A DNA stretch of 64,000 nucleotides from Candidatus Spongiihabitans sp. (GCA_965237725.1 OZ250151.1:2755086-2819085); one strand, 5' to 3'; shown: positions 39,959-59,144, numbered from the stretch's first letter. The notes: generated by a model from the sequence alone, not told the origin. Program-made: numbers and translations.

Positions 39959-40705
39959 TTATCTAATTTTATGAACGATTGTACCGATTAACTTTCCAAG
40001 GTTTTCGGCGTGAGGGCGCTGTAACATCGAAAATGTATCGCCCGACACACCAAATTCATCAACTGAATTTTTGGTCAGGTTATGCCATCCTCTTAAAATT
40101 TGGTCACTACAGTTCTCTGATCGAATTAATATTATTTTTGAAAATATTGGCCCACTTGTGAATTTCAACCCAGCATTAATATACGAATGGGTAATTATTT
40201 TTAGTCGCTCCGCGATTTCCTCTGGAAGTAAGTTGAGTTGATGGACTGTTCGTTCTTTAACGGTATTGACCATTTTCTCCACTTCAAGCAAAATTTTTTC
40301 GTCCACTTGGTGATTACTGGAGTTTTGTGGATGGGCGATACTGTCTAGTAATATTAAACCGGCTACAGTGCCGCCTTCTTTTTCAATTTGCCTAGCAATT
40401 TCAAATGCAACCGTACCTCCGAAACAATGTCCCGCAATGTAGTAAGGGCCTTGTTCCTGCCTATCCGTTATTTCGGATACATAGGCGCAAGCGATTTCTT
40501 CGATGTTTTCATGGGGCGCTTGATCCACATATAGCCCTGTAGGTTCGAACGAGAAGAAATTAATTGGAGGAGATGTCGCCCGTGCGAGGCTTATAAGTGA
40601 CAACGGGGTGGTTCCTGCTGATGGGATCATGAATAAGCTAGGCCCTGACATATCTTTGGTTAGCTCACAAAGATACTGTTGATTATTTGATTGGCTCGGG
40701 GTCAA
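39959..40705 (-). CDS. Type II thioesterase (alpha/beta hydrolase)
   Basis: 248 aa with the nucleophile elbow GHCFGG. It starts 12 nt downstream of the PKS stop. Confidence 0.75.
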   Translation of the reverse strand: MTPSQSNNQQYLCELTKDMSGPSLFMIPSAGTTPLSLISLARATSPPINFFSFEPTGLYVDQAPHENIEEIACAYVSEITDRQEQGPYYIAGHCFGGTVAFEIARQIEKEGGTVAGLILLDSIAHPQNSSNHQVDEKILLEVEKMVNTVKERTVHQLNLLPEEIAERLKIITHSYINAGLKFTSGPIFSKIILIRSENCSDQILRGWHNLTKNSVDEFGVSGDTFSMLQRPHAENLGKLIGTIVHKIR

Positions 40706-43700: not shown

Positions 43701-46700
43701 CTCGGCTCACTGATTGCGAATTCCTTTAGAGGATATATTTCTTCTACATATCGACCACCAGGTCTATGCAAAACAACGTTTTGGGCAGTTCGTGATTCGC
43801 ATTCAATAATTATCGATCCAACTAACCTATCAAAATCTTTTAGATCGGAAAACCCCGAAATTTCGATGCAACGAATGGTGGTTCCAGATAATTCATTGGG
43901 TATGTTCTTAACCGGACCCAGTAGCCCGCCTTTCTCCGCGTGCAGTGGGGTAGACTCCCCGGGCATCTGACGTAGTCCGTCTACAACAATTGATATATCA
44001 AAATCGTCACATATTTTGAGATCAAGCGCGGCTTTTATCAAAGAAATTATGCTGTGATACCCAAGGGTGTTTGCATTTTTAAATGCTTCAATAGAATTAT
44101 GCTCACCATCTGTCCCAGTAACTGACCATAAATGTAATACGCGTGGAGTAAGGTTATCTCTACCCGCTTTGAGTTTTAAAAGTACAGATTTCATGTCTTC
44201 CTTCGACGTTGGTCGGATGCGATATACATCAGCCTCGATTTCAGAAAACGCTTGACCTGGTATGAGTTCTACTACTCGGTTATTGTCAGCTTTTAATCTA
44301 TCGCAAATTTTCTGCCCCAGTCCAACTTCATCTCGGAAAACCAGCCAAGTCTGGCTTTCAATTCTAGATTCGCTGTTTTCGATTTCTTGTTTTCGCCAGC
44401 CGGTTTCATACAACTTGAGTTCCGTCCTGGATCTAGTTTTGGATTCTCCAGATTCCGCCCAATATTTTAAGCGTTCAAATGGATATCCCGGCAAGGTTAG
44501 TTTTTTGCAATTTGAATTAGAATAAAAATTGTCCAAATGTATATTCGCGCCGCTACACCAAAATTTTCCCAGAGCCGCTAGTGCGACGTTAGTGTTATTT
44601 TTTTGGGGTGTTGATTTTGTATCAAGAATGGAAGTAGTGGAAAGGTCTGAATCGTGTTGCTTAACCAGGTCGGATAATCCGGTGCCCGGACCAAGTTCTA
44701 AAAACAGTGATTCAAAATTATTTCGAACATAATCTATAGAATCTGAAAGTCTCACCGGGCGACGTATGTGCTCAGCCCAGTAATCGGCGTTTGTAGCCTG
44801 GTCGTCTGTTAGAGGTAAACCAGTGGTGTTTGAAATGATTGGAATCTCCGGCCGATTTAACTCCATACTATTTACAACGGAGCGAAAACCTGGAATTGCC
44901 GGTTCCATCATCCACGAATGAAAACCATGGGAAGTTTTTAGCTGATGGGTAATTACATTTTCTGAATTTAGTTTCTCGAGAAATTGAGCCATCTGTTCGG
45001 TAGACCCTGAAACTACACATGCATTTGGGCCATTTACAGCAGCGATTTCAACACCAAAATCAAGTTTGTTTAGCAATTCAGATTCAGATTGAAAAACAGC
45101 CGCCATTTTACCTGGATCACACTGTTGCATTAATTTTGCTCGGTTGGCGACCAACACAAGTGCATCATCCAAAGAAAAAACATTGGCGAGGCAAGCCGCC
45201 ACAATTTCTCCAATCGAATGCCCAATAATAGCGGTGGGCTCAATCCCCCAGGACATAAACAGTTTGGCCATGGCGTATTCCACAACAAACAATGCGGGTT
45301 GGGTGTTTGCGGTTTGTTGAAGTAACTCCGACTCAGGATTATTTGGTTGGGTTTGATCTATATGGATAAGAGTACGAATATCTAGACCCAAAAGCTTATG
45401 CAAATGTTCAGCACAATAATCAACTACATCTCTGTAGAATTTCTCGTGGGTATAAATATTTTGTCCCATCCCTAAAAACTGTGCACCTTGGCCTGGAAAC
45501 AAAAATATTGTAGCGCTTTTGTTTTGGTCGACGACACCGGAAAACAGTGGCATTTCATGGATCAGATCCAGTGGCTTGAAATCGTTCTGTCTGGTAATAA
45601 AGCAACAACGGTGTGCCATCTCGGTCCGCCCACACTGCAAGGTATGTGCAATATCAGATAGGCACTCATCCGGATTGACTTCTATATACCATGCTAAATC
45701 AGAAACCCTTCGATCCAGGGATGATGCGGTTGCAGCGGAAAATACAAGTAAATGGTCTTGGCGTGAAGAACCTGAAACTTGAGTTGCACTGAATTCTTGC
45801 AAGATCAAATGTGCATTTGAGCCGCCAAACCCAAAAGCAGAAACGGCGGCCCGCCGCGGGGTACTATTATTTGACCATTCGAGAGACTCAGTCGGAATAT
45901 AAAATGGGCTGGAATCAAGATCGATCAGGGGGTTTCGCCGTGAAAAGTTTGTAAGCGGGGGCAATCGACGTTTTTTAATTGCCAGGCAAGTTTTGATTAA
46001 ACTGACAACACCCGCAGCTGTGCGTAAGTGACCTACGTTGGATTTAACCGATCCAATGGCACAATAGCCCACTTTTTCGGTTTCGTTTCTATATACCTCA
46101 GTGATTGAAGCCACTTCAACTGGATCACCCAATCGGGTGGCGGTACCATGAGCCTCAAGATATTCAATTGATTCAGCATTGACGTTCGCATCATCGAGTG
46201 CGGCTCGAACGACGGCCTTTTGACCCGTTGTGCTCGGGGCGATAAAACTTTCTTTGTAAATGGGCGCACCGTCATTTAATGTTGCAGTACCTTTGATCGT
46301 TGCATAGATATTATTTCCATCCGCTATTGCATCTTCCAGAGGACGAAGTACAACCACGCCACCGCCACTTCCAAAGATTGTGCCGTCGGCATTAGAATCG
46401 AACGGACAAATCCTGCCAGATTCCGACAACATGCCATCAACGGTTGACATGTATCCAGCAATATGTGGAATTTCTACGCCAGCGCCGCCGGCCAGCGCCA
46501 AATTGCATTCTCTGCGTCTCAATGCTTGAGTTGCCATATGAACCGCAACCAGTGAAGTTGCGCAGGCTGCCATTACAGAAATACTTGGTCCATTGAGGTT
46601 TAACTTGTAAGAAACGCGGGTGGTAAAGTAATCAATTACATTGCCAAGTGCATCTGGCAGTATTTCACCGAGATTTTCAACCCTATATCCAATGCTATTA

Positions 46701-47155
46701 GAATTTCCTTGGGGGCTGTTCAGATTCTGTTTTTGATACCAACTTTCAACACCGCCATAAATCCCAGTGACGAACTTTTCTGTTCCCGGCACCACGGCGG
46801 CATTTTCTAATGCCTGCCATGCACATTCTAAAAATAACCGATGACCAGGATCTGTTCGTTCGGTTTCGTATGCCGCCATGTCAAAAAACGCCGAATCAAA
46901 TTCATCCACGTTATCCAGTAAAGGCTTGGTGCGAATGAAGTGTGGATCCGCGAGCTGCGAGCGGTCTATGCCCGCTATACGAAGCTCTTTCGCAGTTGGT
47001 CGTGATAAACAGTCTTTGCCGTTAATGATATTTTCCCAGAATTGCTCAAGGGAATTCGCCCCAGGCACTCTTAATGCCATACCAATTACGGCAATGGGTT
47101 CAGAGTCGAATTGGGACATCAGAATAGTTTTAGGTTGTTGTTCGGCAATACTCAC
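40718..47155 (-). CDS. Single-module type I polyketide synthase, domain order KS-AT-KR-DH-ER-ACP
   Basis: 2145 aa. Coordinates are minus-strand nt.
- KS aa 19-455 (nt 47101-45791): AACATS Cys198, EAHGTAT, KSNVGH.
- AT aa 550-845 (45508-44621): GHSIGE, SHGFHS (malonyl-type HAFH-like).
- KR aa 915-1345 (44413-43121): GTVLITGGVGYLGLE, FVNFSS ... AYSASN.
- DH aa 1380-1645 (43018-42221): DHPLL, LNHRVQNHALLPGT, FHPALIDRAVH.
- ER aa 1690-1995 (42088-41171): GLNFRDLL, LIHAASGGVGLAAIQ.
- ACP aa 2072-2140 (40942-40736): LGGDS, Ser2103. Confidence 0.9.
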   Translation of the reverse strand: MSIAEQQPKTILMSQFDSEPIAVIGMALRVPGANSLEQFWENIINGKDCLSRPTAKELRIAGIDRSQLADPHFIRTKPLLDNVDEFDSAFFDMAAYETERTDPGHRLFLECAWQALENAAVVPGTEKFVTGIYGGVESWYQKQNLNSPQGNSNSIGYRVENLGEILPDALGNVIDYFTTRVSYKLNLNGPSISVMAACATSLVAVHMATQALRRRECNLALAGGAGVEIPHIAGYMSTVDGMLSESGRICPFDSNADGTIFGSGGGVVVLRPLEDAIADGNNIYATIKGTATLNDGAPIYKESFIAPSTTGQKAVVRAALDDANVNAESIEYLEAHGTATRLGDPVEVASITEVYRNETEKVGYCAIGSVKSNVGHLRTAAGVVSLIKTCLAIKKRRLPPLTNFSRRNPLIDLDSSPFYIPTESLEWSNNSTPRRAAVSAFGFGGSNAHLILQEFSATQVSGSSRQDHLLVFSAATASSLDRRVSDLAWYIEVNPDECLSDIAHTLQCGRTEMAHRCCFITRQNDFKPLDLIHEMPLFSGVVDQNKSATIFLFPGQGAQFLGMGQNIYTHEKFYRDVVDYCAEHLHKLLGLDIRTLIHIDQTQPNNPESELLQQTANTQPALFVVEYAMAKLFMSWGIEPTAIIGHSIGEIVAACLANVFSLDDALVLVANRAKLMQQCDPGKMAAVFQSESELLNKLDFGVEIAAVNGPNACVVSGSTEQMAQFLEKLNSENVITHQLKTSHGFHSWMMEPAIPGFRSVVNSMELNRPEIPIISNTTGLPLTDDQATNADYWAEHIRRPVRLSDSIDYVRNNFESLFLELGPGTGLSDLVKQHDSDLSTTSILDTKSTPQKNNTNVALAALGKFWCSGANIHLDNFYSNSNCKKLTLPGYPFERLKYWAESGESKTRSRTELKLYETGWRKQEIENSESRIESQTWLVFRDEVGLGQKICDRLKADNNRVVELIPGQAFSEIEADVYRIRPTSKEDMKSVLLKLKAGRDNLTPRVLHLWSVTGTDGEHNSIEAFKNANTLGYHSIISLIKAALDLKICDDFDISIVVDGLRQMPGESTPLHAEKGGLLGPVKNIPNELSGTTIRCIEISGFSDLKDFDRLVGSIIIECESRTAQNVVLHRPGGRYVEEIYPLKEFAISEPRIRHRGTVLITGGVGYLGLEISKELYSISNCRLVLTSRWQPPPRDEWNSRAKESDKIGFALKAILTLESMGAEVLVVHTDVTNIDSLKSAIVIAENYFSKVNGVVHCAGESIISLAHMDTQQNVDQKLCAKVHTAFNLEKIFADYNLDIFVNFSSQASVLPSVGQCAYSASNNVLDILSHKRSRDRRSLSCAIGFGPLEELGMAVNAVNKNRNEIDRTDEIENFSDGIVEFDHPLLSKYQTDSNDQTIFTGIVADDNSWYLNHRVQNHALLPGTFILECVRGAYVELRGKNYGVELSNVGFLRPLFIDTCGTEIEIKFFNDNNVEYFEVRSRVLQADYWIVNSTGAVKTTSDKSKEFKPPLPMNLVEDSVWQKNGTLVSFGNRWECVEGIVVDGDQTWGKIILADEYISDLNEFEFHPALIDRAVHVPCWRFFTEGVLPYTMKSMRIFDAPGKEFYVYGNRRRSKDFDVYDIKFVNDKGKVLVEIDEYLLLSAQATDIVRSDCDQDNIDVAATNLLGNQFLKVYEPGELDSIGPENFEPKSPETGEVQIDVIASGLNFRDLLSALGQYPLMEGEQLSIGGECAGIVNAVGPGNTDLSPGDFVIAIGNNTISTSITTRFDLVSPMPSNIPFEDAAGLPTIFLTADYVINELAKLKRGERILIHAASGGVGLAAIQYAKNIGAEIFATAGSEEKRNYLKQLGIEHVSDSRSLDFVDDIRSWTNDEGVDVVLNSLAGEFIPASLELLRYKGRFLEIGKRDIYSNTELGLLPFQKCLTYHAFDLGQLVKNRDPAVQRMLNKLVQDIEFGVLKPAPTTVIPIDNAIDGFKRLARAAHIGKNVFKIQKHPDSWQEIFKAFNEKYGKGVPLKDGMALFRSLVSRNHLPSYVLATGLPIDQAHERMDMLDIGRGSRPELETAYREPTDPEEINLTQIWENVLGVTPIGADDDFFDLGGDSITAIQAQFAVTKKYNIDLPVTALFDFPSVCKMSQKIRESTTI

Positions 47156-47604: not shown

Positions 47605-48777
47605 TTGAAAATTGAAGGTGTCGACAACGATTTAGATCCAATTTCGTTATCCAAAATAGAGTTACGGTTAACTGAAATTTGTTGTGAAATTCTTCAGCTG
47701 GAGGCTATGGATGTTAATGACGACCTATTTGATCTCGGTTGTGATTCGGTAAAAGCGATGCAACTTTGCACAATACTTGAAATGGAATTTCAGTACGCTG
47801 GCCGGATAAGTTCGCTTCTGCAATTTTCGACCGTTCGGTTGCTTGCCAAAGAATGCCATACATCGAGTCCCCGTCAATCAACCAATAATTCCTGTACATT
47901 GGTTGATATCCAGGCGTCTGGCAAACTGCCTCCGATAATTGTTATGTATTCGGTAGGGGGTGAGGTTTACTATAGTTTGCCGCTGTTAAATTATCTTGGT
48001 CCTAACCAGCCGGCATATGGCCTTGAGCCGCCTTATGCTTTAGAGCCCCCAGGACCATTGATTGAGCAGATTTCAGGGTATGCAGATAAGTTATGTGAAC
48101 GGTTTCCCAATGGACCGTATTGTCTAATAGGTTATTCGTTTGGTGGCAATATCGCATACGAACTAGCTCAGGAACTTCACAACCGTGGTAAGAAAGTTGA
48201 TCTTGTGGCAATGCTTGATAGTCATGCAGTTGGACAGTCTCAATCTATTCTTGAACGCGCCAAATCGCTTTTGGGGTTTATCGTGAATTTTCCACGTTGG
48301 ATTTTACAAAACTTAGATCCTCGAGATATGCCAGAATTTATTGGTCGATTAAAAAGGAAATGTGCAGCTATCACTAACAGAATTTTAGTAAGTTTGGGTT
48401 ATGCTATTGAAACCTATACTTTCGAATGGGAGGATGTCCCAGAGATGGGAAAAATTTCAGACGATATGGCTACCCATTATTACCATATCCATCGAAGCGT
48501 TTATGAATTTTTTGGCACCCACCAGTCAAAGCCATATAATGGCGATGTCATGATTTTCCGTGCCAAGGTAAGACCCTTGTTCCACGGTTTTAGCAAACAC
48601 CTTGGTTGGAAACAACTTATAAAAGGCAAGCTTACTATCATAGATATCCCTGGAACCCATGGTCATTTGATACGCAAGCCTAATGTTGAAATTGTTGCCA
48701 ATCATCTTGGTGAGGTGCTTCAAAGGATTGAGGACCAATATAAGGCCCAACCAGATTATAGCGCGTCTTTGAATTAG
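47605..48777 (+). CDS. Stand-alone carrier protein fused to a thioesterase (ACP-TE didomain)
   Basis: 390 aa with a TTG start. The carrier motif is DLFDLGCDSVKAMQL (Ser48). The alpha/beta hydrolase part has GYSFGGNIAYE and GTHGHL. Confidence 0.8.
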   Translation: MKIEGVDNDLDPISLSKIELRLTEICCEILQLEAMDVNDDLFDLGCDSVKAMQLCTILEMEFQYAGRISSLLQFSTVRLLAKECHTSSPRQSTNNSCTLVDIQASGKLPPIIVMYSVGGEVYYSLPLLNYLGPNQPAYGLEPPYALEPPGPLIEQISGYADKLCERFPNGPYCLIGYSFGGNIAYELAQELHNRGKKVDLVAMLDSHAVGQSQSILERAKSLLGFIVNFPRWILQNLDPRDMPEFIGRLKRKCAAITNRILVSLGYAIETYTFEWEDVPEMGKISDDMATHYYHIHRSVYEFFGTHQSKPYNGDVMIFRAKVRPLFHGFSKHLGWKQLIKGKLTIIDIPGTHGHLIRKPNVEIVANHLGEVLQRIEDQYKAQPDYSASLN

Positions 48778-48797: not shown

Positions 48798-49547
48798 TTG
48801 TTGAAGCAGTGGCATGAATACAAAGCGCCAATTGCGTTATCCGGCGACCGTGTTGATATATGGTGTATTTGGTTTGAAGACGGTAGCGAATCGATTTTAG
48901 ACTATTTAGATATTCTTAGCAGTGAAGAACGAAAGCGTGCGAAACGGTTTCATCGAAAAGTAGATTTCCACAGATTTGTTGTGGCCAGATACGTTTTACG
49001 TACACTACTTGGTGGAATTGTGGGAGCCCAACCGTCGTCTCTGGAATTCAGCACAAATAAATATGGCAAACCAAAGTTGTTGCCCAAGCTGTCTCTTAAT
49101 CAAAATTCTGAATCGATAAATTTCAATCTATCCCATGCAGGTGAATATGGATTAGTTGCAATTTCAACTGCAAAAAAAATTGGTATCGATATTGAGCGAA
49201 TCAGAGAAATTGATAATATTGAAGAACTGGCAAAACGATCATTTTCCAATGATGAGTATTTGCAATTTATTACCCAGCCAGAGTTTGATCGGTTAAATAC
49301 ATTTTTTCGATGCTGGACCCGAAAAGAAGCATTCATAAAGGCTATCGGTAAAGGCCTAAACCAGCCTCTGGATTCTTTCTCGGTATCAAGTTCCCCAGAT
49401 CAAGAAGTTAAATTTTTATCACTGCCTCCAGGATATCAACTAAAAAATTGGGCTCTATACGATATTGGCATTAACCAACATTACCGTGCAGCTTTAGCGA
49501 TAGATCGAGCTATAACGACCGTAGCGTGCTGGCAGTGGCAACAATAA
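48798..49547 (+). CDS. Sfp-type 4'-phosphopantetheinyl transferase
   Basis: 249 aa with a TTG start. Motifs are FNLSHAGEYGLVAIS, IGIDIERI and WTRKEAFIKAIGKGL. Confidence 0.85.
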   Translation: MLKQWHEYKAPIALSGDRVDIWCIWFEDGSESILDYLDILSSEERKRAKRFHRKVDFHRFVVARYVLRTLLGGIVGAQPSSLEFSTNKYGKPKLLPKLSLNQNSESINFNLSHAGEYGLVAISTAKKIGIDIERIREIDNIEELAKRSFSNDEYLQFITQPEFDRLNTFFRCWTRKEAFIKAIGKGLNQPLDSFSVSSSPDQEVKFLSLPPGYQLKNWALYDIGINQHYRAALAIDRAITTVACWQWQQ

Positions 49548-49566: not shown

Positions 49567-50589
49567 TCATCCCACCGCAAGATAATCCATTTCAGCATTG
49601 TAACCAAATTCAATAAGTATCTGCTCAATTTCTTCCCTCGCGCCATGGTTGGTAACGTAAATCAGTACAAACGGTTTTTTGACTTGATGCTTTAACCAAT
49701 CGGGAGCAAATACTTCAATGCCATTAAGTTTGTTGCCAATCTTTTTGGGGTCAATGTCAATCCAGGCTCGTGGTGTAAACCCTTTTTCTATCAATAGCTG
49801 GCAACGCTTTCGGGTTTTTCTGCCAGCACCCCAATAAACAATTTTACGATCTTGATTGAGTTGGGAATCTTGGGCCATGTATTCTGCCCTGACCCTATCA
49901 AATGCTTGTCGACTATAAGCAGGATGAGTTCGTGACAAACGATTTGGACTATCTCGCCAACGCAATAGAACTTCCGGAAGTTTAACCATGGCGCATCCAT
50001 CAGCGTGCATCCGCAGCCAGAGTTCATAATCTTCGGGGAAGTCGCCTCTGCGATATCCCCCTAATTGTTCAATGGTTGATTTTCTAAACATCACGCTGGG
50101 GTGGGCAAATGGAGATTCAACATAAATCTGTTGGCGAATTTGCTCCGGGGTCAACACGCTATTCTGCCAGCGCATGTATTCTGTGTACCCGCTGAGCATA
50201 GGCGCTTCGGAGAACATTTCAACCTGACTGGAGATTAGATCCATGTCCGGAAACTCTAGCGATGCTTGCATAAGTTTTTCCATGCGCTGGGGATGCATAA
50301 TATCGTCGCCATCCATTCGAACGATCCATGTGGATTGCGCATTTTCAATACCAAAATTCAGCGCATCAACCAGACCTTCACCTGGATTGTTGAATAGTCG
50401 AAAACGCGGATCGTCATAACTGTTTAGTATTTCGCTTGAGCGATCATTACTATGATCGTCTACCGCAATGAGATTGAATTCCGGAAATGTCTGATCTTGA
50501 ATCGAATCCAGAGTTTCCGAAAATGTATTTTCTGCATTTCGAAAGGGCAGAAGAATGGATAATTTAGTTGTAGATTCGTTCAAACGCAT
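49567..50589 (-). CDS. Family 2 glycosyltransferase with an extra C-terminal domain of about 100 aa
   Basis: 340 aa with LSILLPFRNAENTFSETLDSIQDQTFPEFNLIAVDDHSND and the DxD motif in RMDGDDIM. The C-terminal segment KIVYWGAGRKTRKRCQLL is Rossmann-like. Confidence 0.8.
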   Translation of the reverse strand: MRLNESTTKLSILLPFRNAENTFSETLDSIQDQTFPEFNLIAVDDHSNDRSSEILNSYDDPRFRLFNNPGEGLVDALNFGIENAQSTWIVRMDGDDIMHPQRMEKLMQASLEFPDMDLISSQVEMFSEAPMLSGYTEYMRWQNSVLTPEQIRQQIYVESPFAHPSVMFRKSTIEQLGGYRRGDFPEDYELWLRMHADGCAMVKLPEVLLRWRDSPNRLSRTHPAYSRQAFDRVRAEYMAQDSQLNQDRKIVYWGAGRKTRKRCQLLIEKGFTPRAWIDIDPKKIGNKLNGIEVFAPDWLKHQVKKPFVLIYVTNHGAREEIEQILIEFGYNAEMDYLAVG

Positions 50590-51004
50590 CCACGCTGAAT
50601 CCGTTTAGCCTTTTGCTGCCAACCAAAATTACCGGCACACCTCGACCGCCCAATTTATCGTATTCCCGCCTCGCTTTATCTGAGTTTTCGATGTCGTATT
50701 CTTTGTAAGGAATGCCTTTGCTGGCGAAATATTCTTTGGCCTTCTTACAATAGGGACACCAACTGGTCCCATACATTATGACCGTATTTATTGACGAATC
50801 AGAATTTGAATAATTAGACTCGATAGAGGTGCTTTCGTAGCTGTTGATTTTGATTTCTACTTCAGAAAAAGCTTCGGTTTCCGGTGGCGTATCGCTGAAA
50901 TGGGTGACCCCGTTTTCATCTGTCCATTTATATACGTCATTAGCAGAAATGGGGTAATTCAGACATAAAATTATTGACATGGCTATGAATGCCTGGGCTT
51001 TCAT
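50564..51004 (-). CDS. Secreted DUF4124-like domain fused to a glutaredoxin/NrdH-like domain
   Basis: 146 aa. A signal-like N-terminus (MKAQAFIAMSIILCLNYPISA) is followed by VYKWTDENGVTHFSDTPP (DUF4124 signature). The thioredoxin-fold part has MYGTSWCPYCKKAKEYF ... GVPVILVG. The ATG overlaps the upstream stop (ATGA at 51001-51004). Confidence 0.75.
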   Translation of the reverse strand: MKAQAFIAMSIILCLNYPISANDVYKWTDENGVTHFSDTPPETEAFSEVEIKINSYESTSIESNYSNSDSSINTVIMYGTSWCPYCKKAKEYFASKGIPYKEYDIENSDKARREYDKLGGRGVPVILVGSKRLNGFSVDAFERIYN

Positions 51005-54000
51005 GATTGCTCAGTAAATCCCATTGCGGATAAGTTAGATTTAAAGCTATCGCGAATTTCTTTGTTGTAACTGTATGTGCGAATTAGCCCGGAAACGCCA
51101 AATTCAGCGTCCATGCTTTTAATTTCACTGGCGACTCGTTTTGCAGCCGCATTATCACCTGATGCAACCAGGGCATCGACCAGATAAAACCGACATAACG
51201 GTGATTCGGGCTCAACATCGACGGCAGAATTTAGTATCTCAATGGCTTTTGTAATATTCCCGGTTTGTTTGTAAGCATGAGCGCCAGGGAGTAGATACCA
51301 GTTTGGGTAAACCGGACACAGTTGGATAGATTGTTCGAAATGAGAGAAGGATTTTTGGTATTCCCCGGCATAGACATAGGTCATCGCCATCAATGCCTGG
51401 ACCTCGGAATTTCCAGGCGACAATGCAATGGCATTTTCACAAAACTCGATAGCCAGTATGGGTTCACCAGACCTAACATAGGCACAGCCTTTCAAGGATA
51501 AGGCATCCGGGTGTTGTGGATCAATTTCAAGTGCTTTGTCAGCGGCTTCGTGGCATAGACTCAGAGATTCTTCCATTGACTCTCCCCAGCCTGTGTAAGC
51601 TTCCTGCCAGTGGACCCAGCCTTTTATAATCCAGGCCGTAGCATAATCAGGATCAAGCGCCAGCGCTTTTAAGGCCAGGCGTTGCGCTTCCAGGACGTTT
51701 TTACGAATATAACTATCCTGTAACTCAGCCGCTATTGCACATGATTCCCAGGCTTTTATATTGTTTGTCCCCCGCGCCCAGTCCAGGGCAGACAGGCCAT
51801 CGGCAAGTTGAACTCGCATGGCGATGGTTATGTTATTGGTGATTTCATCCTGGACTGCAAAAATATCGTCAAGCTTTCGATCGTATTGTTCAACCCAGCA
51901 ATTATCTCCTGTACGAGAATCGATTAACTGAACGTTAACCCTGATTTTCTTACCGCTTTTTCGTATGCTGCCATCGAGGATGTATCGTACGTTTTGTTCA
52001 TCGGCTATCTGACGAATAGGAGCTTTTCTGTCTTTATAGACGGATGTGGAATAACTCGATACCACACGAATTTGCCGAAAGCGTGACAATATGGTCACCA
52101 GGTCGTTGGCAATGCCATTGCTGAAGTGCGCCTGTTCGGGATCGCCGCTCATATTCTCGAAAGGCAGCACGGCGATGGAAGGTAAGGCATCCGGCGCATT
52201 ATCATTGGAACCTCGCTGTTCGCTAAATCCCATCAATTCCAGATTGTTGTGAAATCGTTGCCGCTCTTCTTCATCCTGACTGTGGAACAGGATGACGCCA
52301 CTGATATTCATCGAATGTTCCAGCGATCGTATTTCATCAGCAATCTGTTTTGCTTTGTCCGGTTTGCCCGCTACCAAATAGGCGTCTATCAAGTAAAATC
52401 GGGTCAGCGGCGATTCGGGTTCATCAGCGATGCTTTTCAGAAACAGGGCAATGGCATCTTCCAGCTTACCCAGATCCTGGTAAATATTGCCGCCTACAAG
52501 GGATAACCAGCTCGGGGAAATGGGGCTCAGGCGAACCGCGGTTTTGTAATAATCCAGGGCCTCTTTGGGTCTCCCGGCATATGAATGAACATAAGCGCAT
52601 AGACCAAGGGCCTCAGAGTTGCCTGGAGAGATTTCTACCGCCCGACGGGCAATTGTAATGGAAATTTCAGGGTCTCCCTTTCGCATCATCACAATAAATG
52701 ATTGCAATATCAATGTGCTGGTGTTGTCGGGATCTAAAGTTATAGATTTTTCAGCAGCTGTTTCGGCTGCTTCGAGCAAGGGTTCCATGGCATTCATGTG
52801 AGAAATATAAGCTTCCTGCCAGTTGATCCATCCCAGGATCGACCAGGCAAGGCCATACTCCGGGTCATATTCAATAGCAATATGGATTAATCGACGAGCC
52901 TCAACGATATTGTCCCTGATATAGGTGTCACTAAGGTCACCCGCCCGAACAGTGTATTCCCAGGCCTTAAGACTTTTGGTTTTTATAGCCTTCTCTCTGG
53001 CTTTATCGCCGTCGGCCAGCTGAATCCGCATGGCGGTGGCGATACTCAGGGTGATTTCGTCCTGCACCGCAAAAATATCATCGAGCTTGCGGTCATAGGT
53101 TTCCGACCAACACATTTCCTCGGTTGTGGAATCAATTAGTTCGGTATTGACACGAACTTTTTTTCCGCTCTTGCGTATCCGACCTTCCAGTATATATCGG
53201 GTGTTCTGTTCGGCGGCAATCTCGGCGATGGTTGCCTTTCGTTCCTTATAGGCATAAGTGGAATGCAGTGCAACTACACGCATATTGCGAAAATGGGATA
53301 ACGTCGAAATAATATCGCTGGTAATACCATCGCTGAAAAATTCCTGTTCTGGATCACCACTCAGATTTTCGAAAGGCAGCACAGCAATGGAAGGAAGTTC
53401 GTCTGAGTTTACTTCAAGATAATCACACAACCCTGCTTTCAATATCAAATCAAAGAACTTTTCAAAATCCTCATCGTATTTATAAGTTAGAAAATCATAA
53501 AAGAACGAACGCCATTGCGCCACAGAATCAGGATACGCGGGCATTTTCTGCCTCGCTAGAACCTGATATTTAGACATTTCAATTTTGGCTTGCTGGGTGT
53601 CACCCATAGCGGCAAGACAAACTGCAATTTGAGCCAAACAACTATCCGGCATGTGTGGCAGTGAACGGAATACTTGAATTGCTTTTTCAAATTTGCCAAG
53701 GTCCCGATAAACTTCACCCACAATCCACCCCGCATAGGCATGTTGAGGGTCAAGTTTTAAGCATTTATCCGCGTAGTCAAGGGCGCTATCGAACTGTCGT
53801 GCAGATGCTAGTCCCCAGGCCTTCATGGCATAACCGTCAGGAAGAGTGGGATTAAGTTCGATCGCTTTATCTGCGTGAAAATCACCACGATCAAATTCTC
53901 TAGCAAAATACAAATATTCACTCATAAAACCATGTACAAAGGCATTTTCTGGGTCGAGCTCCAGGGCACGCTCGATATGGTATTTCCCCTTGGGTAATAT

Positions 54001-57000
54001 GGCTTTTCTGTCAACAGTCCAGTTTTCGTTAAAATTTACATATTGCACAGCTGCAAGATACGCATGTGCGTTCGCATTATCTGGATCAAGTTCAATAGAT
54101 TGCTCTAAAAGCGTCTGGCCTTTTTTATTGTCCTCGGGAGAGAATTTATGCACGTGATAAATTCCTCGAAGGTAGAAATCGTAGCTTTTCAGATTGCTGA
54201 GCGGTTTTCGTGCGGCAGATTGTTGGATGTCCAGGTCAATACGCCCACGCAAGGTGCTAGCGATGGTCTGGCTTAATTCTTCTTCAAGATCAAAAATATC
54301 TTCCAGCTCTGAATCGTAGTGTTTTCCCCATAGCTGATTGCCACTACTTGATTCAATCAGTTGAGCCGCAATACGAAGTCGATTTCCCGATTTGCGCACA
54401 CTGCCGTCAACCATGTATTGCACATTAAGCTGTTCCGCAATATCTAATATAGATTCATTGCTATCACGATAAACAAAACTGGTATGGCTGGACTTAACAA
54501 TTAGTCCTTTAAACATACCTAATCCTTGAATTATGCTTTCGCTGATGCCGTCACTAAAATATTCCTGCTCGGGGTCATTGGAAAGGTTTTTAAACGGCAG
54601 GACAGCAATGGTTGGAAAGATACTCAGGTCGCTGGTGTCAATCGCAGCTGGCTGTAATTCACAAATTCCTGCATTTTCCAATATTTCAAATTGGGCATCG
54701 ATAATTTGTGTGTCTTCAAATGGCATATTGTCACGCCAATAGCTATACCATTCATCCCGCGAACTTGGAAATGCCTTCATTGATTCTCGAGCACCCTTTA
54801 AAAACCTTTGTATGGCTTCTCGTGCTTTTTTTGCTTCACCGTTCTTCATATAACAAATTGACAGGATCGCAAGCAGGTAGTGTGGGGTTGTATTTGATCC
54901 TGAAATTGTTTTTATGGCGTCTTCGTACTTTTCGCTATTTAATTGTGATTCAGCAATTTGCCAATGTCCCCAGGCATGGTGGGGATCAATTTCCATACAT
55001 TTCACTGCGTACCCCAATGCGGAATCGTATTGACCTGTCATGTTCGACAGCAGTGCTTTTTGGGCGAGGGCTTCAGGGTTACCTGGATTATTTTTTATTT
55101 CTTTATCAATTGTGGCACCTGCAGCGTCGTATTTTCGGCTAAAAATCAATTGTTCAGTACATGCGGTGAGTGCAACGCTGCTATTCGGAGTCAAATCAAT
55201 TGCTTTCTCAACATGCTCACGCGCTAGTTGAAATGACTTTTTATGGTTCATTGTCCAACGTTCCAGCCAAATCATGGTGTGGTTGTAGCTAAGAATTGCA
55301 TGTGCGCGAGAATTGCTGGGTTCGAGTCCAATGCATTTATTCAATTTATCTAGTGCAATAATCGAATCTTCTGCCGTGAATCGTTGGGTATGGTAGAGGC
55401 CTTCAAGTAGAAAATCATAGGCTTGGTGATCCCCTGCTCTTTTAGAAATCGCTATTTTCTGAAGATCAGATTCGATTCGACCCGTCACATTTCCAGCAAT
55501 GGTTCTGCTGAGCTCTTCCTCGAGATCGAAGATGTCCTTTAGCTCTGAATCAAATCGACCACTCCAAACCTGATTTCCGTTTTGTGCTGCAACCAACTGA
55601 ACGGAAACTCGAATACGATCGTTGGACTTTCGTATGCTCCCTTCAACCACATAATCAACGTCGAGTTCTTTTGAAATTTCCCCAATGGATTTAATTTGTT
55701 CCTTAAAAGCAAAGCTCGCATTTCTAGATTTGACCAACATATCCGGAAATAGGGAAAGGTTGTTGATGACGCTTTCTGTGATTCCGTCACTGAAATATTC
55801 TTGACTTGGATCACCAGATAAATTATCAAATGGTAGTACCACTATAGCTGGAATCTTGTCGCCGTTATCAGGAATTGCCGTTTCTTCAATATATTGTTCC
55901 AAACCCGCATCACAGAGCGCATCAAAGGGATAGTCGCTGTCGTAATCGTGTTTGGCGGCTGACGTTGCCTGCCAGAGTCTGTGCCAGTCTTCCAGGGTGG
56001 CGGGGGGCGTGACCATGTTCTTACGTACCGTCTCGACGTATTTCTGTAGATGCTTCTCGGCGGTAGTATGTTGGCCCAGTCTCTCGTAGCATGCCGCAAG
56101 CCAACCTTCTATTTCATCAGAAGGATTCGGCATCATTTTGAAGGTATCCAGTGCATCTTGGAAGCGCTTGCCAGTGTAATAGGCAATTCCATTGACCCAG
56201 TCTATCCATGGATGAAATGGATCCAGGGTTCTGCACGCGTCCGCCATTTCCAGAGCAATTTCTACATTGCCAAGTCCAGCGTGCACCGAACTCAAGGTCG
56301 CCAAGGTCTCAATATCATCGGGGTTCAGCCGGTACGCGCGCTCAGCTCGATCTTCGCAACGATCGTAATCTCGATCGAATAAAAGGAATTCCGCGAAACT
56401 TGATAAAATCACCGACTCATCGGGTCCCAGCTCAACCGCTTTTTCAATGTGGTGGCGCGCTCTTTCGAAATTTTCCTGACGGGGTTCGGTCCAGCCTGAT
56501 AACCAGTCGAGGATATTGACGCGATACAAATAGTTATGGGCAAATTCACAATCCGGATCCAGTGCAATACACTTTTCCAGTGCCTCTCTACTGAGCAAGT
56601 TATTTTCAGGGTTAAATTTATTTAGATGATATTTACCTCGCATCAGCAAATCGTAGCTGTCCATATCCTTTGCGGGTTTTCGATAGGCGATTTCCTCATC
56701 AGAAATATCCATCTTGCCTTTGATATTGGAAACGATAGTTCTTATTAGTTCGTCTTCTACATCGAAGATTTTTTCAAGATCGGTATCGAATCGCTTACCC
56801 CAGATCTGCTTACCAGATTCTGTATTGACCAGCTGAGTTGTGATCCTCAGTTTCTTTGGGGTTTTGCGAACGCTGCCTTCGATGATATAGCGGACTTTGT
56901 ACTTGTCGGAAATTTCATTGGCAGTCAGGTTTTGCTGTCCAATGGCATTGGAGTAGTTTCTGGAGAGAATATTGAGAGAAGGGTAGTTGGTTAATCCGAC

Positions 57001-57918
57001 AATGACCCCTTCGGTAATGCCTTCGCTGAAGTATTGTTGTTCTGAATCGTTGGAAAGATTTTCAAAAGGCATAACCAGAATTGCGTTTTCATTCGGATCA
57101 AGACTTTTATCGGCTGGTTTTTTCAGCGGTGATTTCTCCGGACTCGAAGTTTGGGGCTTCGGTGCTACCGGAGTTTGCTTACCGTCACGAATCTCATCTC
57201 GTAGTTCATTGGTCTGGGTTTCGGGTTCAACCCCAAGCTCCAGTTTTAATGTTTCACTACAACGCTTGTACGCCAGTAGTGCATGATTGCGATTGCCTTT
57301 CGCAGCATATGCCTGCATCAGTAGTCGCCATGCAGATTCTTCAAGGGGGTCGTATTCGACCAATCGTTCAGCGGATTCGATTGCCAGTTTGTATTTTTTA
57401 TCAGATATTTGTAATTGGCCAAGGTTTGATAGGATTTCCACAATCAGGCGCTTGAACCGATCTCTTTCGTGGGCTAGCCAGCCCTGGCTTGCAGCATCAC
57501 GAATGGTTATGCCCTCCAAAAACTCACCCTGATACAGTTTTGCCGCTTTGGTCAGGCTTTTTATATCGGTTTCCCCAGCAAGCTGTTCAAATTCCAGGGC
57601 ATCTACCTGAATCAAATCTGCATCCAGGGAAACCGTGGTCCGTTCGATTTCCAGCGGCATCTCGTCCATGCTAACCAGGGTTTTTTTAATGGCGCTTAAG
57701 GCCTGGCGTAGACTATTTCGGGCCTGCTCCTCGCTGCGATTACTCCACAAGAGATTGAGTAAACGTTCCCTTGGATGGCGGATGCCCGGTGCTAATGCAA
57801 GATAAGCCAACAGGACTTCGGCTTTCCGTGTTGACAGGGTAAGCCGATCTCCGGATTTCGCTTTCGAAGACAGTCGGCATTCGATTTGCCCCAGTAACTT
57901 AAGGTTTAGCCCCACCAA
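51001..57918 (-). CDS. Giant SARP/BTAD-type transcriptional regulator with five tandem TolB-N-like + TPR modules
   Basis: Uninterrupted 2305-aa ORF. Residues 1-245 form a winged helix (RKAEVLLAYLALAPGIRHPRERLLNLLW) plus BTAD (YQGEFLEG ... AWRLLMQAYAAKGNRNHALLAYKRCSETLKLELGVEP). The AVLPF-x-N-x-S-x-D module starts at aa 279, 691, 1103, 1511 and 1915, corresponding to minus-strand nt 57084, 55848, 54612, 53388 and 52176. Confidence 0.9.
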   Translation of the reverse strand: MVGLNLKLLGQIECRLSSKAKSGDRLTLSTRKAEVLLAYLALAPGIRHPRERLLNLLWSNRSEEQARNSLRQALSAIKKTLVSMDEMPLEIERTTVSLDADLIQVDALEFEQLAGETDIKSLTKAAKLYQGEFLEGITIRDAASQGWLAHERDRFKRLIVEILSNLGQLQISDKKYKLAIESAERLVEYDPLEESAWRLLMQAYAAKGNRNHALLAYKRCSETLKLELGVEPETQTNELRDEIRDGKQTPVAPKPQTSSPEKSPLKKPADKSLDPNENAILVMPFENLSNDSEQQYFSEGITEGVIVGLTNYPSLNILSRNYSNAIGQQNLTANEISDKYKVRYIIEGSVRKTPKKLRITTQLVNTESGKQIWGKRFDTDLEKIFDVEDELIRTIVSNIKGKMDISDEEIAYRKPAKDMDSYDLLMRGKYHLNKFNPENNLLSREALEKCIALDPDCEFAHNYLYRVNILDWLSGWTEPRQENFERARHHIEKAVELGPDESVILSSFAEFLLFDRDYDRCEDRAERAYRLNPDDIETLATLSSVHAGLGNVEIALEMADACRTLDPFHPWIDWVNGIAYYTGKRFQDALDTFKMMPNPSDEIEGWLAACYERLGQHTTAEKHLQKYVETVRKNMVTPPATLEDWHRLWQATSAAKHDYDSDYPFDALCDAGLEQYIEETAIPDNGDKIPAIVVLPFDNLSGDPSQEYFSDGITESVINNLSLFPDMLVKSRNASFAFKEQIKSIGEISKELDVDYVVEGSIRKSNDRIRVSVQLVAAQNGNQVWSGRFDSELKDIFDLEEELSRTIAGNVTGRIESDLQKIAISKRAGDHQAYDFLLEGLYHTQRFTAEDSIIALDKLNKCIGLEPSNSRAHAILSYNHTMIWLERWTMNHKKSFQLAREHVEKAIDLTPNSSVALTACTEQLIFSRKYDAAGATIDKEIKNNPGNPEALAQKALLSNMTGQYDSALGYAVKCMEIDPHHAWGHWQIAESQLNSEKYEDAIKTISGSNTTPHYLLAILSICYMKNGEAKKAREAIQRFLKGARESMKAFPSSRDEWYSYWRDNMPFEDTQIIDAQFEILENAGICELQPAAIDTSDLSIFPTIAVLPFKNLSNDPEQEYFSDGISESIIQGLGMFKGLIVKSSHTSFVYRDSNESILDIAEQLNVQYMVDGSVRKSGNRLRIAAQLIESSSGNQLWGKHYDSELEDIFDLEEELSQTIASTLRGRIDLDIQQSAARKPLSNLKSYDFYLRGIYHVHKFSPEDNKKGQTLLEQSIELDPDNANAHAYLAAVQYVNFNENWTVDRKAILPKGKYHIERALELDPENAFVHGFMSEYLYFAREFDRGDFHADKAIELNPTLPDGYAMKAWGLASARQFDSALDYADKCLKLDPQHAYAGWIVGEVYRDLGKFEKAIQVFRSLPHMPDSCLAQIAVCLAAMGDTQQAKIEMSKYQVLARQKMPAYPDSVAQWRSFFYDFLTYKYDEDFEKFFDLILKAGLCDYLEVNSDELPSIAVLPFENLSGDPEQEFFSDGITSDIISTLSHFRNMRVVALHSTYAYKERKATIAEIAAEQNTRYILEGRIRKSGKKVRVNTELIDSTTEEMCWSETYDRKLDDIFAVQDEITLSIATAMRIQLADGDKAREKAIKTKSLKAWEYTVRAGDLSDTYIRDNIVEARRLIHIAIEYDPEYGLAWSILGWINWQEAYISHMNAMEPLLEAAETAAEKSITLDPDNTSTLILQSFIVMMRKGDPEISITIARRAVEISPGNSEALGLCAYVHSYAGRPKEALDYYKTAVRLSPISPSWLSLVGGNIYQDLGKLEDAIALFLKSIADEPESPLTRFYLIDAYLVAGKPDKAKQIADEIRSLEHSMNISGVILFHSQDEEERQRFHNNLELMGFSEQRGSNDNAPDALPSIAVLPFENMSGDPEQAHFSNGIANDLVTILSRFRQIRVVSSYSTSVYKDRKAPIRQIADEQNVRYILDGSIRKSGKKIRVNVQLIDSRTGDNCWVEQYDRKLDDIFAVQDEITNNITIAMRVQLADGLSALDWARGTNNIKAWESCAIAAELQDSYIRKNVLEAQRLALKALALDPDYATAWIIKGWVHWQEAYTGWGESMEESLSLCHEAADKALEIDPQHPDALSLKGCAYVRSGEPILAIEFCENAIALSPGNSEVQALMAMTYVYAGEYQKSFSHFEQSIQLCPVYPNWYLLPGAHAYKQTGNITKAIEILNSAVDVEPESPLCRFYLVDALVASGDNAAAKRVASEIKSMDAEFGVSGLIRTYSYNKEIRDSFKSNLSAMGFTEQS

Positions 57919-57981
57919 ATTTGTCCTAATTTCAATTGATTCGCCAAATTTTGAATTAAATTCGACAAATTAGCCCATATA

Positions 57982-58061
57982 TTTCAATGAGTTAAAAAAT
58001 TTAATGATTATTTAATGATTATTTTCGGGTATTTAATGCAAATACGCAAGGAAATTAATGA
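57982..58061 (+). promoter_or_regulatory. Helically phased TTTAATGA-type direct repeats, including a perfect 11-bp tandem TTTAATGATTA x2 at 58000-58021
   Basis: AATGA/AATGC cores occur at 57986, 58003, 58014, 58035 and 58057, giving spacings of 17, 11, 21 and 22 nt. They lie between the divergent giant BTAD regulator gene (start 57918) and the first small gene (start 58118). Confidence 0.35.
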
Positions 58062-58117
58062 CGACCTAAGAGAATGCCTCCATCGAAACCAAACATCACT
58101 TAAACGAGGCAACTAAA

Positions 58118-58363
58118 ATGAGAAAAGTAAACATTAAAAACCGAACCCATAACCACACCGATTCGTTTGCGCAGGGGGTTAAGCAACTGGCTCGAGAAAA
58201 ATCAGTAAGCGAAAGCGCTTATTCAGATTATGAGTTGAACGCCATTCTTCGCTACGAGCAGGAAACCGCCACTCAACCACCAGTACACACACCTAATGCA
58301 GGGTTCCACGTAGTAGACCTGCTTAAAGAATTGAGCTGGATGAGTAAAGGATTCCGGTTCTAA
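58118..58363 (+). CDS. Small hypothetical protein, paralog A (81 aa)
   Basis: A good SD (GAGG) lies 8-11 nt upstream of the ATG. The N-terminal half is paralogous to the next ORF (MRKV-N-x-N ... FAQG-x-x-Q ... VS-x-S-x-Y-x-D-x-EL-x-A). Confidence 0.55.
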   Translation: MRKVNIKNRTHNHTDSFAQGVKQLAREKSVSESAYSDYELNAILRYEQETATQPPVHTPNAGFHVVDLLKELSWMSKGFRF

Positions 58364-58367
58364 GCCA

Positions 58368-58399
58368 TTTATTCACTAACTATTTTATTCACTAACTAT
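58368..58399 (+). promoter_or_regulatory. Perfect 16-bp tandem direct repeat TTTATTCACTAACTAT x2 immediately upstream of small paralog B
   Basis: Copies at 58368-58383 and 58384-58399 were read directly. They end 16 nt before the ATG at 58416. Confidence 0.35.
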
Positions 58400-58415: not shown

Positions 58416-58616
58416 ATGAGAAAAGTAAGAAATCAAAATAACCATTATTCACATCCGGCCCTTATGTTTGCCCAGGGCATTGTCCAGGTCACCGAAGATC
58501 ACTTAGTAAGCGGATCGAAGTACGATGATCAGGAGTTAAAAGCAATGAAAAGGGCTCCAAAACAGCCCAAGGCACAAAATAATTTATTTACTGTTTTATT
58601 GAGAAAATTGGCTTGA
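58416..58616 (+). CDS. Small hypothetical protein, paralog B (66 aa)
   Basis: MRKVRNQNNHYSHPALMFAQGIVQVTEDHLVSGSKYDDQELKAM aligns with paralog A MRKVNIKNRTHNHTDSFAQGVKQLAREKSVSESAYSDYELNAI. Confidence 0.5.
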   Translation: MRKVRNQNNHYSHPALMFAQGIVQVTEDHLVSGSKYDDQELKAMKRAPKQPKAQNNLFTVLLRKLA

Positions 58617-58751
58617 GCCAATAACAATTGTTCGGCCCTACAGATTTGCCAAGTTTTAAATCCATTTTTTTCTTGGCTTGTCAATAAATTGGGCGTAGTA
58701 TGAGTTATCCAACACTAGCCAATGGACCTATTTGGTCAGGACGTTATAGTC

Positions 58752-59144
58752 ATGAAATTATTAAAAGTTTCGATTTCTGGGTTAGCTCTAATTTTTGCTG
58801 TTACAGTTCAACCCATTCAGGCAGATGAGTTTGCCATTGAATTTGAATGGTATGACGGGATGAAAGAATGTTTCTCGAAAAAATCCCCAGAGATAAAACT
58901 GATAAATCTACCCGAAGGTGTTACCAAATTTAAGGTTAAGATGGTCGACAAAGATGCGCCGGGATTTGGCCACGGTGGGGGTAAGATCAAATATGAAGGT
59001 GGGGATGTCATCCCCCACGGCGCACTAAAGAGCTGGAAGGGCCCTTGCCCGCCGTCAACTCACACCTACTCATTTCAAGTCCAGGCCTATGCTGAGAAAA
59101 AGAAAGTAGGTTACGCTTCATACGATCAAAAATTTCCCCAATAG
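58752..59144 (+). CDS. Secreted PEBP (YbhB/YbcL) family protein
   Basis: Signal peptide is MKLLKVSISGLALIFAVTVQPIQA. PEBP blocks are VDKDAPGFGHGGG and GPCPPSTHTYSF. The track ORF starts 30 nt earlier, at 58722. Confidence 0.65.
   Translation: MKLLKVSISGLALIFAVTVQPIQADEFAIEFEWYDGMKECFSKKSPEIKLINLPEGVTKFKVKMVDKDAPGFGHGGGKIKYEGGDVIPHGALKSWKGPCPPSTHTYSFQVQAYAEKKKVGYASYDQKFPQ

Follow-up and report, generated by a model that had tools for sequence, protein, structure and literature searches.

Regulators of the SARP family (Streptomyces antibiotic regulatory proteins) have been studied almost solely in actinomycetes. AfsR and the other large SARPs of Streptomyces carry an N-terminal winged helix-turn-helix (wHTH) of the OmpR type, a BTAD domain and a large TPR-containing C-terminal regulatory region; in AfsR, the C-terminal domains autoinhibit the SARP domain, and the target is a small gene, afsS, at which SARP protomers sitting on direct repeats replace the contact with a −35 element. 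According to the promoter rule for SARPs, direct repeats are spaced by 11 or 22 bp, and the one at the 3′ end is separated from the −10 element by 8 bp (PMC10936776). Two further described systems are HilA/EilA, virulence regulators of Salmonella/E. coli in which a cytoplasmic wHTH is followed by an alpha/beta plus TPR unit, and CadC, which has a periplasmic sensor behind a transmembrane helix. In the RRNPP regulators (Rgg/SHP, PlcR/PapR), a TPR-containing DNA-binding regulator is encoded beside a small open reading frame (ORF), which it probably activates. Here, we describe a SARP head from Gammaproteobacteria that are marine, sponge- and worm-associated; the promoter that goes with it is a textbook example for SARPs. 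In a stretch of 64,000 nucleotides from Candidatus Spongiihabitans sp. (GCA_965237725.1 OZ250151.1:2755086-2819085), called the window below, a gene for a regulator of 2305 amino acids (aa) diverges from two small ORFs, with an operator of four direct repeats in between. The regulator is a large SARP in which a variable array of tandem CadC/HilA-like modules takes the place of NOD-TPR as the regulatory region, and the regulator, the operator and the small-protein gene form a conserved cassette, which was previously undescribed.

The regulator gene occupies positions 51001-57918 on the minus strand, from a TTG start at 57918 to a stop codon at 51001-51003, as a single uninterrupted ORF of 6.9 kb with 0 internal stops, as a sequence-only reading of the window had described it. 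In alignment, the TTG start coincides with where homologues begin, and non-ATG starts are frequent among these as well; their occurrence across the family hints at a deliberately weak translation of the regulator. Apparent TTG or GTG starts were seen in P0001, P0003, P0004, P0008, P0020 and P0050 as well as in the window gene, and the database translations start with L or V. The highest mean hydropathy over 19 residues (Kyte-Doolittle) is only 1.22, and the regulator is therefore without a membrane segment, as anticipated; over the whole protein, hydropathy reveals no transmembrane helix of the kind that separates the wHTH from the sensor in ToxR/CadC-like proteins. The best repeated DNA stretch in the gene measures 73 nt at 63-79% identity. 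The sequence-only reading had asked for a check that the 6.9 kb are not an assembly expansion: with the frame intact, modules 21-48% identical and no long DNA repeat, a repeat-driven expansion is excluded. PADLOC gave no match for the 2305-aa protein, and a sequence search of the PDB with the whole regulator returned generic TPR matches only.

The head (aa 1-245; 57184-57918, minus strand) had been read as an OmpR/SARP-type winged helix plus a BTAD domain, and a Pfam match substantiates the BTAD domain, profile alignments both parts. BTAD (PF03704) directly follows the wHTH at aa 116-244 (E = 2e-24; 87 bits versus a cut-off of 22.1). In a profile built from 11 homologous heads, positions 16-243 align to the SARP domain of AfsR (AfsR residues 56-284; E = 6e-11) and positions 18-86 to the wHTH of ToxR (E = 3e-3), alignments that identify the wHTH as being of the OmpR type; the profile also matches EmbR (E = 8e-13). 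The best named matches in NCBIfam are AfsR/SARP models, weak and far under their cut-offs. The head is the best conserved region of the regulator (53-65% identity among homologues), and 11 heads share without variation the segment QARNSLR, predicted to belong to the recognition helix. Judged by these matches, the head is a SARP domain. A Pro/Lys-rich linker (aa 246-278; 57085-57183, minus strand; read directly from the sequence) connects it to module 1, which thus stands where AfsR-type large SARPs have the NB-ARC/NOD P-loop ATPase; no NTPase family occurs among the Pfam and NCBIfam matches listed for the regulator.

The rest of the protein consists of five modules, all encoded on the minus strand. 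Module 1 (type A1; aa 279-690; 55849-57084) is 70-73% identical to the first module of the closest homologues. Module 2 (type A2; aa 691-1102; 54613-55848) was defined by identity comparison, clustering and a hidden Markov model (HMM), and module 3 (type A3; aa 1103-1510; 53389-54612) is the one for which structural prediction, Foldseek and profile searches are given below. Module 4 (type B; aa 1511-1914; 52177-53388) belongs to a type that is normally terminal and is here internal, and module 5 (aa 1915-2305; 51004-52176) is the terminal copy of type B by identity comparison and clustering. The motif [IV][AVL]V[LM]PF.N[LM]S.D begins at aa 280, 692, 1104, 1511 and 1915, within one residue of the five starts proposed earlier, which recur with a period of 404-412 aa. 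The HMM, which covers the first ~135 aa of the modules, finds exactly five matches in the regulator ORF (E about 1e-64 to 1e-66) and one further match elsewhere in the window (34147-34533), in the alpha/beta domain of a class III cyclase of 800 aa (32863-35265, minus strand); this cyclase carries one copy of the module, just as the sequence-only reading had held.

The same reading had noticed two kinds of module tail and had suggested aligning the modules all against all. They fall into two groups: modules 1-3 are 34-38% identical among themselves and modules 4 and 5 share 48% identity, while identities between the two groups are 21-27%. The two tail types thus correspond to real module types, A and B, and there are no recent copies; on the basis of these identities, the five modules are old paralogues. 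The overall description of the protein as a SARP-type head with five paralogous TolB-N-like plus TPR modules of two subtypes stands, supported by profiles and identities. A recent tandem duplication giving rise to modules 4 and 5 was considered and rejected: each is 53-59% identical to the terminal modules of other species, with a mutual identity of 48%.

Clustering of 234 modules revealed a collinear plan, in which A1 comes first, followed by at least one A2, at least one A3 and one terminal B. The usual layout in the family is head-A1-A2(n)-A3(n)-B, that of the window protein A1-A2-A3-B-B; the only other protein with two B modules in the clustered set, P0040, is cut off at a contig end. Modules 1, 2 and 3 of the window protein are most similar to the same-position modules of the closest homologues (72%, 67% and 58% identity to P0008, respectively), and this positional orthology across species suggests that each position is kept by selection. 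The idea that a B module is obligatory was rejected, given a 667-aa member with one A3-type module only; a 2-module member of the family is A1 plus B.

Module 3 was modelled with AlphaFold2 (AF2) from 27 module sequences (mean pLDDT of 87.3). The model has an alpha/beta sandwich at residues 1-102, to which a long helix and ~13 TPR-like helices are appended; in order, there is a beta-alpha unit, a three-stranded beta-meander, the long helix and the TPR-like helices. This order of secondary structure agrees with the published fold of the CadC sensor, in which an alpha/beta sandwich, a three-stranded meander and a C-terminal helix precede a TPR domain (PMC9214523). Most of the Foldseek matches of the model in the PDB are confined to the TPR part, and only one solved structure is matched over the full length of the module, namely the CadC periplasmic sensor (3LY7, 3LY8, 3LY9, 3LYA; E = 3e-6 to 9e-6 over 338-345 aligned columns, with low TM-scores of 0.32-0.48 and 11-15% identity). 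All five modules match the HilA/EilA profile PRK12370, module 3 over positions 123-409 (E = 7e-20; 70.9 bits); the whole regulator collects 161 bits in 5 stretches, far under the family cut-off of 589 bits, which indicates homology of the module, not membership of the family. The CadC profile matches three of the five modules, one of them at positions 217-395 (E = 1e-6). One module matches the N-terminal domain of TolB (E = 5e-5) within positions 12-160 of the 418-position TolB profile, with no match to the C-terminal six-bladed beta-propeller. Pfam has no family that reaches its gathering threshold on the alpha/beta domain; FlgO, FlgT_M and TolB_N stay below theirs (TolB_N with 17.5 versus 22.4 bits).

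The AF2 model, the Foldseek matches and the CadC profile concur in an alpha/beta sandwich with a TPR-like helical bundle as found in ToxR/CadC-like sensors, and the module is a unit related to the part of HilA that follows the wHTH and to the periplasmic sensor of CadC. It differs from the latter in being cytoplasmic and repeated, whereas the sensor of CadC is single and periplasmic; HilA, in turn, shares the cytoplasmic arrangement of wHTH and alpha/beta plus TPR unit but has one such unit and no BTAD. Conservation is concentrated in the alpha/beta domain, where 11 of the 12 invariant columns of the module alignment are located and where the near-invariant motif VLPF.N.S.D...YF..G is kept in every module. 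The sequence-only reading had envisaged a multi-input integrator, which may apply; residues that are invariant in all modules speak equally for a single shared partner and for five distinct inputs.

With a word-indexed search, we retrieved 58 proteins that have this head; they form length classes of ~1480, 1890, 2300, 2710, 3090 and 3526 aa, which by HMM count correspond to 3, 4, 5, 6, 7 and 8 modules, respectively. Species-representative genomes contain intact 1- and 2-module versions, all in one frame, and a 7-module protein is encoded in one frame on a complete 3.7-Mb chromosome. In all, same-head proteins with 1-8 modules are present, under generic names only, in dozens of metagenome-assembled genomes (MAGs) of Gammaproteobacteria; the hosts of the cassette are uncultured and live in marine sediments or in symbiosis with sponges and gutless worms. 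The sequence-only reading had known of no described protein with this repeat number: none is characterised indeed, but the databases contain at least 11 further proteins in which this head carries five modules, as well as forms with six, seven and eight modules. It had also held that one unit per protein is the norm, which is correct only in part. When 1.84 billion cluster representatives were searched with a profile, the alpha/beta domain appeared in 103,777 proteins, and the best 150 of these all have at least two copies (mostly two; ~24 have three, seven have four, and there are single representatives with five, six, seven and nine). Five copies are therefore rare, though neither unique nor the maximum.

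The module and its invariant motif are shared with TolB-like plus TPR cyclases, Ser/Thr kinases and wHTH proteins, which differ from the regulator in their output domain and usually have one or two copies (two to four behind a kinase head). We found no description of the SARP head plus module array in the literature on the module, nor a characterised protein there among the module-bearing cyclases, Ser/Thr kinases and wHTH proteins. Among P0059-P0066, P0057, P0125 and P0163, there are Ser/Thr kinase heads with 2-4 modules, one BTAD plus cyclase protein with four, and two long proteins with 6 and 9 matched stretches in which no output domain was recognised. Degenerate forms of the cassette were seen in two host-associated genomes: in L019 (a Ca. 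Poriferihabitaceae MAG), the regulator is frameshifted with one module remaining, and in L026 (the Olavius algarvensis Gamma 3 symbiont), a head ORF of 247 aa without modules occurs with a truncated operator and no small ORF.

The operator consists of four TTAATG direct repeats (58000-58061, plus strand) that start at 58001, 58012, 58033 and 58055, spaced by 11, 21 and 22 bp, and it points towards the small ORFs. It is followed by a conserved, putative −10 element, GAGAAT (58070-58075, plus strand), 9 nt after the last hexamer TTAATG, or 8 nt if the repeat is taken as the heptamer TTAATGA. No sigma-70-like −35/−10 pair and no −35-like hexamer were found at this small-ORF promoter. The spacing of the repeats and the 8-9 bp to GAGAAT match the SARP promoter rule (PMC10936776), and this geometry, established in silico, is conserved across ~30 genomes. 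The consensus of 33 loci reads TTTAATGATTt TTTAAtGaTtA TTTTg.g..at TTAAcGc.attcgGCAAGg.aa TTAAcG, then 8-9 bp to GAgAAT, and the repeat becomes TTAAYG across the family. The identical spacing of 11/21/22 bp occurs in 25 of the 34 species-level loci. Compared pairwise, the loci differ on average by 0.04-0.09 within the repeats, by 0.11 within GAGAAT and by 0.20 along the entire section from the first direct repeat (DR1) to the −10 element, versus 0.49-0.50 in both flanks; the intergenic DNA is much more conserved than the proteins. As at AfsR targets, direct repeats at 11/22 bp are thus combined with a 3′ repeat ~8 bp from a −10 element and no good −35 element; the differences are that there are four repeats and not two, that their sequence is TTAAYG and that the hosts are Gammaproteobacteria.

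Within the window, the two-repeat operator pattern occurs once, in the divergent intergenic region of the regulator. A scan of metagenome contigs required the DR1-DR2 pattern, and all its counts refer to the matches listed. Among these, there are 56 operator-like sites, all beside a small ORF and/or a SARP head; 54 of them have both, while one of the remaining two lacks a detected small ORF and the other has only 143 bp of upstream flank. A further 69 matches among those listed are chance hits in AT-rich sequence, next to neither a small ORF nor a SARP head. On the strand of the regulator, a TATAA-like element, its presumed promoter, lies directly against the first two repeats, which makes autoregulation plausible. 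Rfam gave no match at E<=1 for the intergenic region and the small ORFs. Between the start codon of the regulator and the operator, a 12-nt direct repeat (ATTCGCCAAATT and ATTCGACAAATT, 21 bp apart; 57939-57971) was seen in a region that is poorly conserved in other loci. Furthermore, TGCCTC (58075-58080), overlapping the end of the putative −10 element, is complementary to GAGGCA (58106-58111) at the small-ORF Shine-Dalgarno sequence; the complement is absent from the other common sequence variant, so that a conserved hairpin sequestering the ribosome-binding site seems unlikely.

Downstream of the operator, on the plus strand, small ORF a (58118-58363; 81 aa; pI of 9.1) is of a "long" subtype also found in the closest relatives, and small ORF b (58416-58616; 66 aa; pI of 10.1) is of the canonical subtype, MRKVRN...NP.LMFAQG...NLF..LLR. 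Four homologue loci have an unannotated small gene ~200 bp upstream of the regulator in divergent orientation, with products that start with MRKVRN and have P..MFAQG.E in common. Across the family, the small proteins are basic and 66-88 aa long, and in nearly all loci their ORF starts 60-65 bp past the last repeat. Among the 88 loci with a small ORF, the window alone has two in tandem, with one operator upstream. Divergence around the conserved motif, calculated from 74 distinct sequences, is 0.33, 0.21 and 0.56 at codon positions 1, 2 and 3, respectively, which indicates that the small ORF is protein-coding. A single-sequence search with small ORF b matched only itself, relatives being retrieved with an alignment: a profile search with the small-protein alignment found 275 database clusters, which are without exception labelled "hypothetical" and lack Pfam domains. 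Pfam, NCBIfam and PADLOC gave no match for the small ORFs.

The AF2 model of the small protein has three helices at low confidence (pLDDT of 69; pTM of 0.29), which suggests that it is not compact on its own; two helices, one N-terminal and one C-terminal, are conserved. The small proteins have neither a signal peptide nor a hydrophobic export segment (maximal KD15 of 0.67-0.83), and their pI of 9-10 compares with ~5 for the modules. A 1-module regulator and one with three modules are accompanied by near-identical small proteins. A 16-mer (TTTATTCACTAACTAT) is duplicated exactly in tandem (58368-58399) in the gap that separates the two small ORFs, directly ahead of the ribosome-binding region of the second. 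Downstream of them, a PEBP-family protein of 140 aa with a hydrophobic N-terminus is encoded at 58722-59144 (plus strand), a position that is not conserved elsewhere.

We consider it probable, if not beyond doubt, that the regulator is a cytoplasmic one-component SARP activator in a three-part cassette comprising an operator bound by the head, a small ORF as its target and an array of modules that gates it. The wHTH plus BTAD head would bind the four TTAAYG repeats, all on one face of the helix, upstream of a promoter with a −10 element only, and protomers on the promoter-proximal repeats would stand in for the missing −35 contact and recruit RNA polymerase, as with AfsR and other SARPs. The head would thereby switch on the divergent gene(s) for the small basic protein (two tandem copies in the window), and this protein may be the actual output of the system, in a role comparable to that of AfsS downstream of AfsR. 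Judging from the operator, the small-protein gene is likely the direct target, and not the neighbouring polyketide cluster. In having as its predicted target an adjacent gene that encodes a very small protein, the cassette resembles AfsR-afsS; here, this protein is unrelated in sequence to any named family. Through the two upstream repeats that abut its own presumed promoter, the regulator might also autoregulate. The five-module array may keep the head inactive, or govern how it oligomerises, for as long as no partner has bound to the modules, by analogy with the NOD-TPR part of AfsR and the sensor role of the CadC unit. The regulator departs from AfsR in the C-terminal region, where 1-8 tandem alpha/beta plus TPR modules are found and, among the matches listed, no NOD/NB-ARC ATPase.

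Several points weigh against this proposal. What has been computed is which family and fold the head and the modules belong to, how conserved the operator is and how its elements are spaced, that it is linked exclusively to the head gene and the small ORF, and that this ORF is coding; DNA binding, activation, autoregulation and the role of the modules, in contrast, we infer from sequence alone. Trans_reg_C scores 22.2 bits on the head, under its Pfam cut-off of 26.2, and the −10 element remains putative, GAGAAT having been assigned by consensus. The layout of the operator is identical for 1-module and 7-module proteins, which means that the array is dispensable for defining the DNA site, and no single module type is indispensable, given 1- and 2-module members that are devoid of a B module. 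The DR1-DR2 scan would miss divergent sites and, with them, a wider regulon that might possibly include the polyketide cluster. The low-confidence model of the small protein allows neither an inference on its activity nor a fold search.

The sequence-only reading had linked the regulator to the adjacent biosynthetic locus, and it might indeed be a cluster-situated SARP that integrates several inputs and controls the polyketide/glycosyltransferase locus (~35.3-51.0 kb). SARPs of actinomycetes are typically cluster-situated, the regulator gene abuts the cluster, and its stop codon overlaps the start of a glutaredoxin ORF that is in turn overlapped by a GT2 glycosyltransferase ORF on the same strand. 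However, the neighbours of the regulator are unrelated in five homologue loci, with no polyketide synthase (PKS), so that the link finds no support there; the sole SARP-type operator in the 64-kb window is the one in the regulator's own divergent intergenic region, with no second direct-repeat operator at the cluster, and the true operators elsewhere, among the matches listed, are all located between the regulator and the small ORF. We therefore regard control of the cluster as unlikely. An assembly artefact or a decaying pseudogene, for which the degenerate versions in the two symbiont genomes (L019 and L026) could be invoked, is extremely improbable and, for the window gene, refuted: the frame is intact over 6.9 kb, the modules are 21-48% identical without a long DNA repeat, and intact 3- to 8-module orthologues occur in many independent assemblies, including the complete 3.7-Mb chromosome.

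Two other explanations concern the array. It could be mainly architectural: a long TPR solenoid or a scaffold for oligomerisation would fix the stoichiometry or spacing of four DNA-bound heads and would not sense ligands. TPR arrays often act as scaffolds, four repeats imply up to four bound protomers, and module number varies from 1 to 8 over an unchanged operator. Yet the near-invariant alpha/beta motif of each module looks like a specific binding site, the modules are orthologous by position from species to species, each position being conserved individually, and the homologous CadC unit is described in the literature as a sensor, which together make a mainly architectural role improbable. 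Alternatively, the small protein or a fragment of it could be the ligand of the TPR modules in a peptide-receptor feedback, with the duplicated B module and the duplicated small ORF of the window as matched pairs. The likeness to RRNPP systems lies in the logic only, a TPR-containing regulator next to a small ORF, as the DNA-binding domain is different, the hosts are Gram-negative and the small protein has no export signal. The strict linkage of a TPR receptor gene to the divergent small ORF would fit such a feedback, as would a small protein predicted to be helical and not compact, with two conserved helices, as if it folded on a partner, and the opposite charge of acidic modules (pI ~5) and basic small proteins (pI 9-10); moreover, the window is the only one of the 88 loci with two small ORFs and encodes the only complete protein of the clustered set with two B modules. 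Against it, hydropathy gives the small proteins no signal peptide or hydrophobic export segment and hence nothing like the exported pro-peptide of RRNPP, near-identical small proteins accompany 1-module and 3-module regulators, and P0040, cut off at a contig end, has two B-type modules and one small ORF. The pairing of two B modules with two small ORFs is thus not backed by P0040, and the feedback seems rather doubtful to us. We are similarly tentative about a broader proposal, a new Gram-negative signalling system in which the SARP activator would read the neighbouring small protein or several partners, position-specifically, through an expandable CadC-like array, and in which the window would have preserved a matched duplication of terminal module and ligand.

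With the one-component activator as the preferred reading, the direct target of this SARP head is predictable. The head is fused to a sensor unit found in >100,000 protein clusters, with cyclases, kinases, HilA and CadC-like regulators among its carriers, the ligand of which unit is essentially established for CadC alone, and the natural variants with 1 to 8 modules on a constant head, operator and target are a ready series for probing module function. The cassette also defines an unnamed small-protein family of 275 clusters. For annotation, caution is called for: an adjoining biosynthetic cluster is no basis for assigning such regulators.

On the other side of the regulator, a DUF4124 plus glutaredoxin ORF (50564-51004, minus strand) has its longest-ORF start in an ATGA overlap with the regulator stop codon, and it is overlapped by the GT2 glycosyltransferase ORF, which has a C-terminal CoA-binding-like region (49567-50589, minus strand). 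Both are possibly co-transcribed with the regulator, in this genome only. Beyond them, the polyketide cluster includes genes for a phosphopantetheinyl transferase (48798-49547), an ACP-thioesterase (47605-48777), a type I PKS of 2145 aa with the order KS-AT-KR-DH-ER-ACP (40718-47155), a thioesterase (39959-40705), an Asp/Arg beta-hydroxylase (38937-39926), an AMP ligase (37421-38929) and a halogenase-like 2-oxoglutarate oxygenase (35328-36272). The class III cyclase adjacent to the latter shows weak matches to rhodanese and a CXXCW motif in its C-terminal region, as well as a weak similarity to the "peptide modification system cyclase" TIGR04510, which is through the module only.

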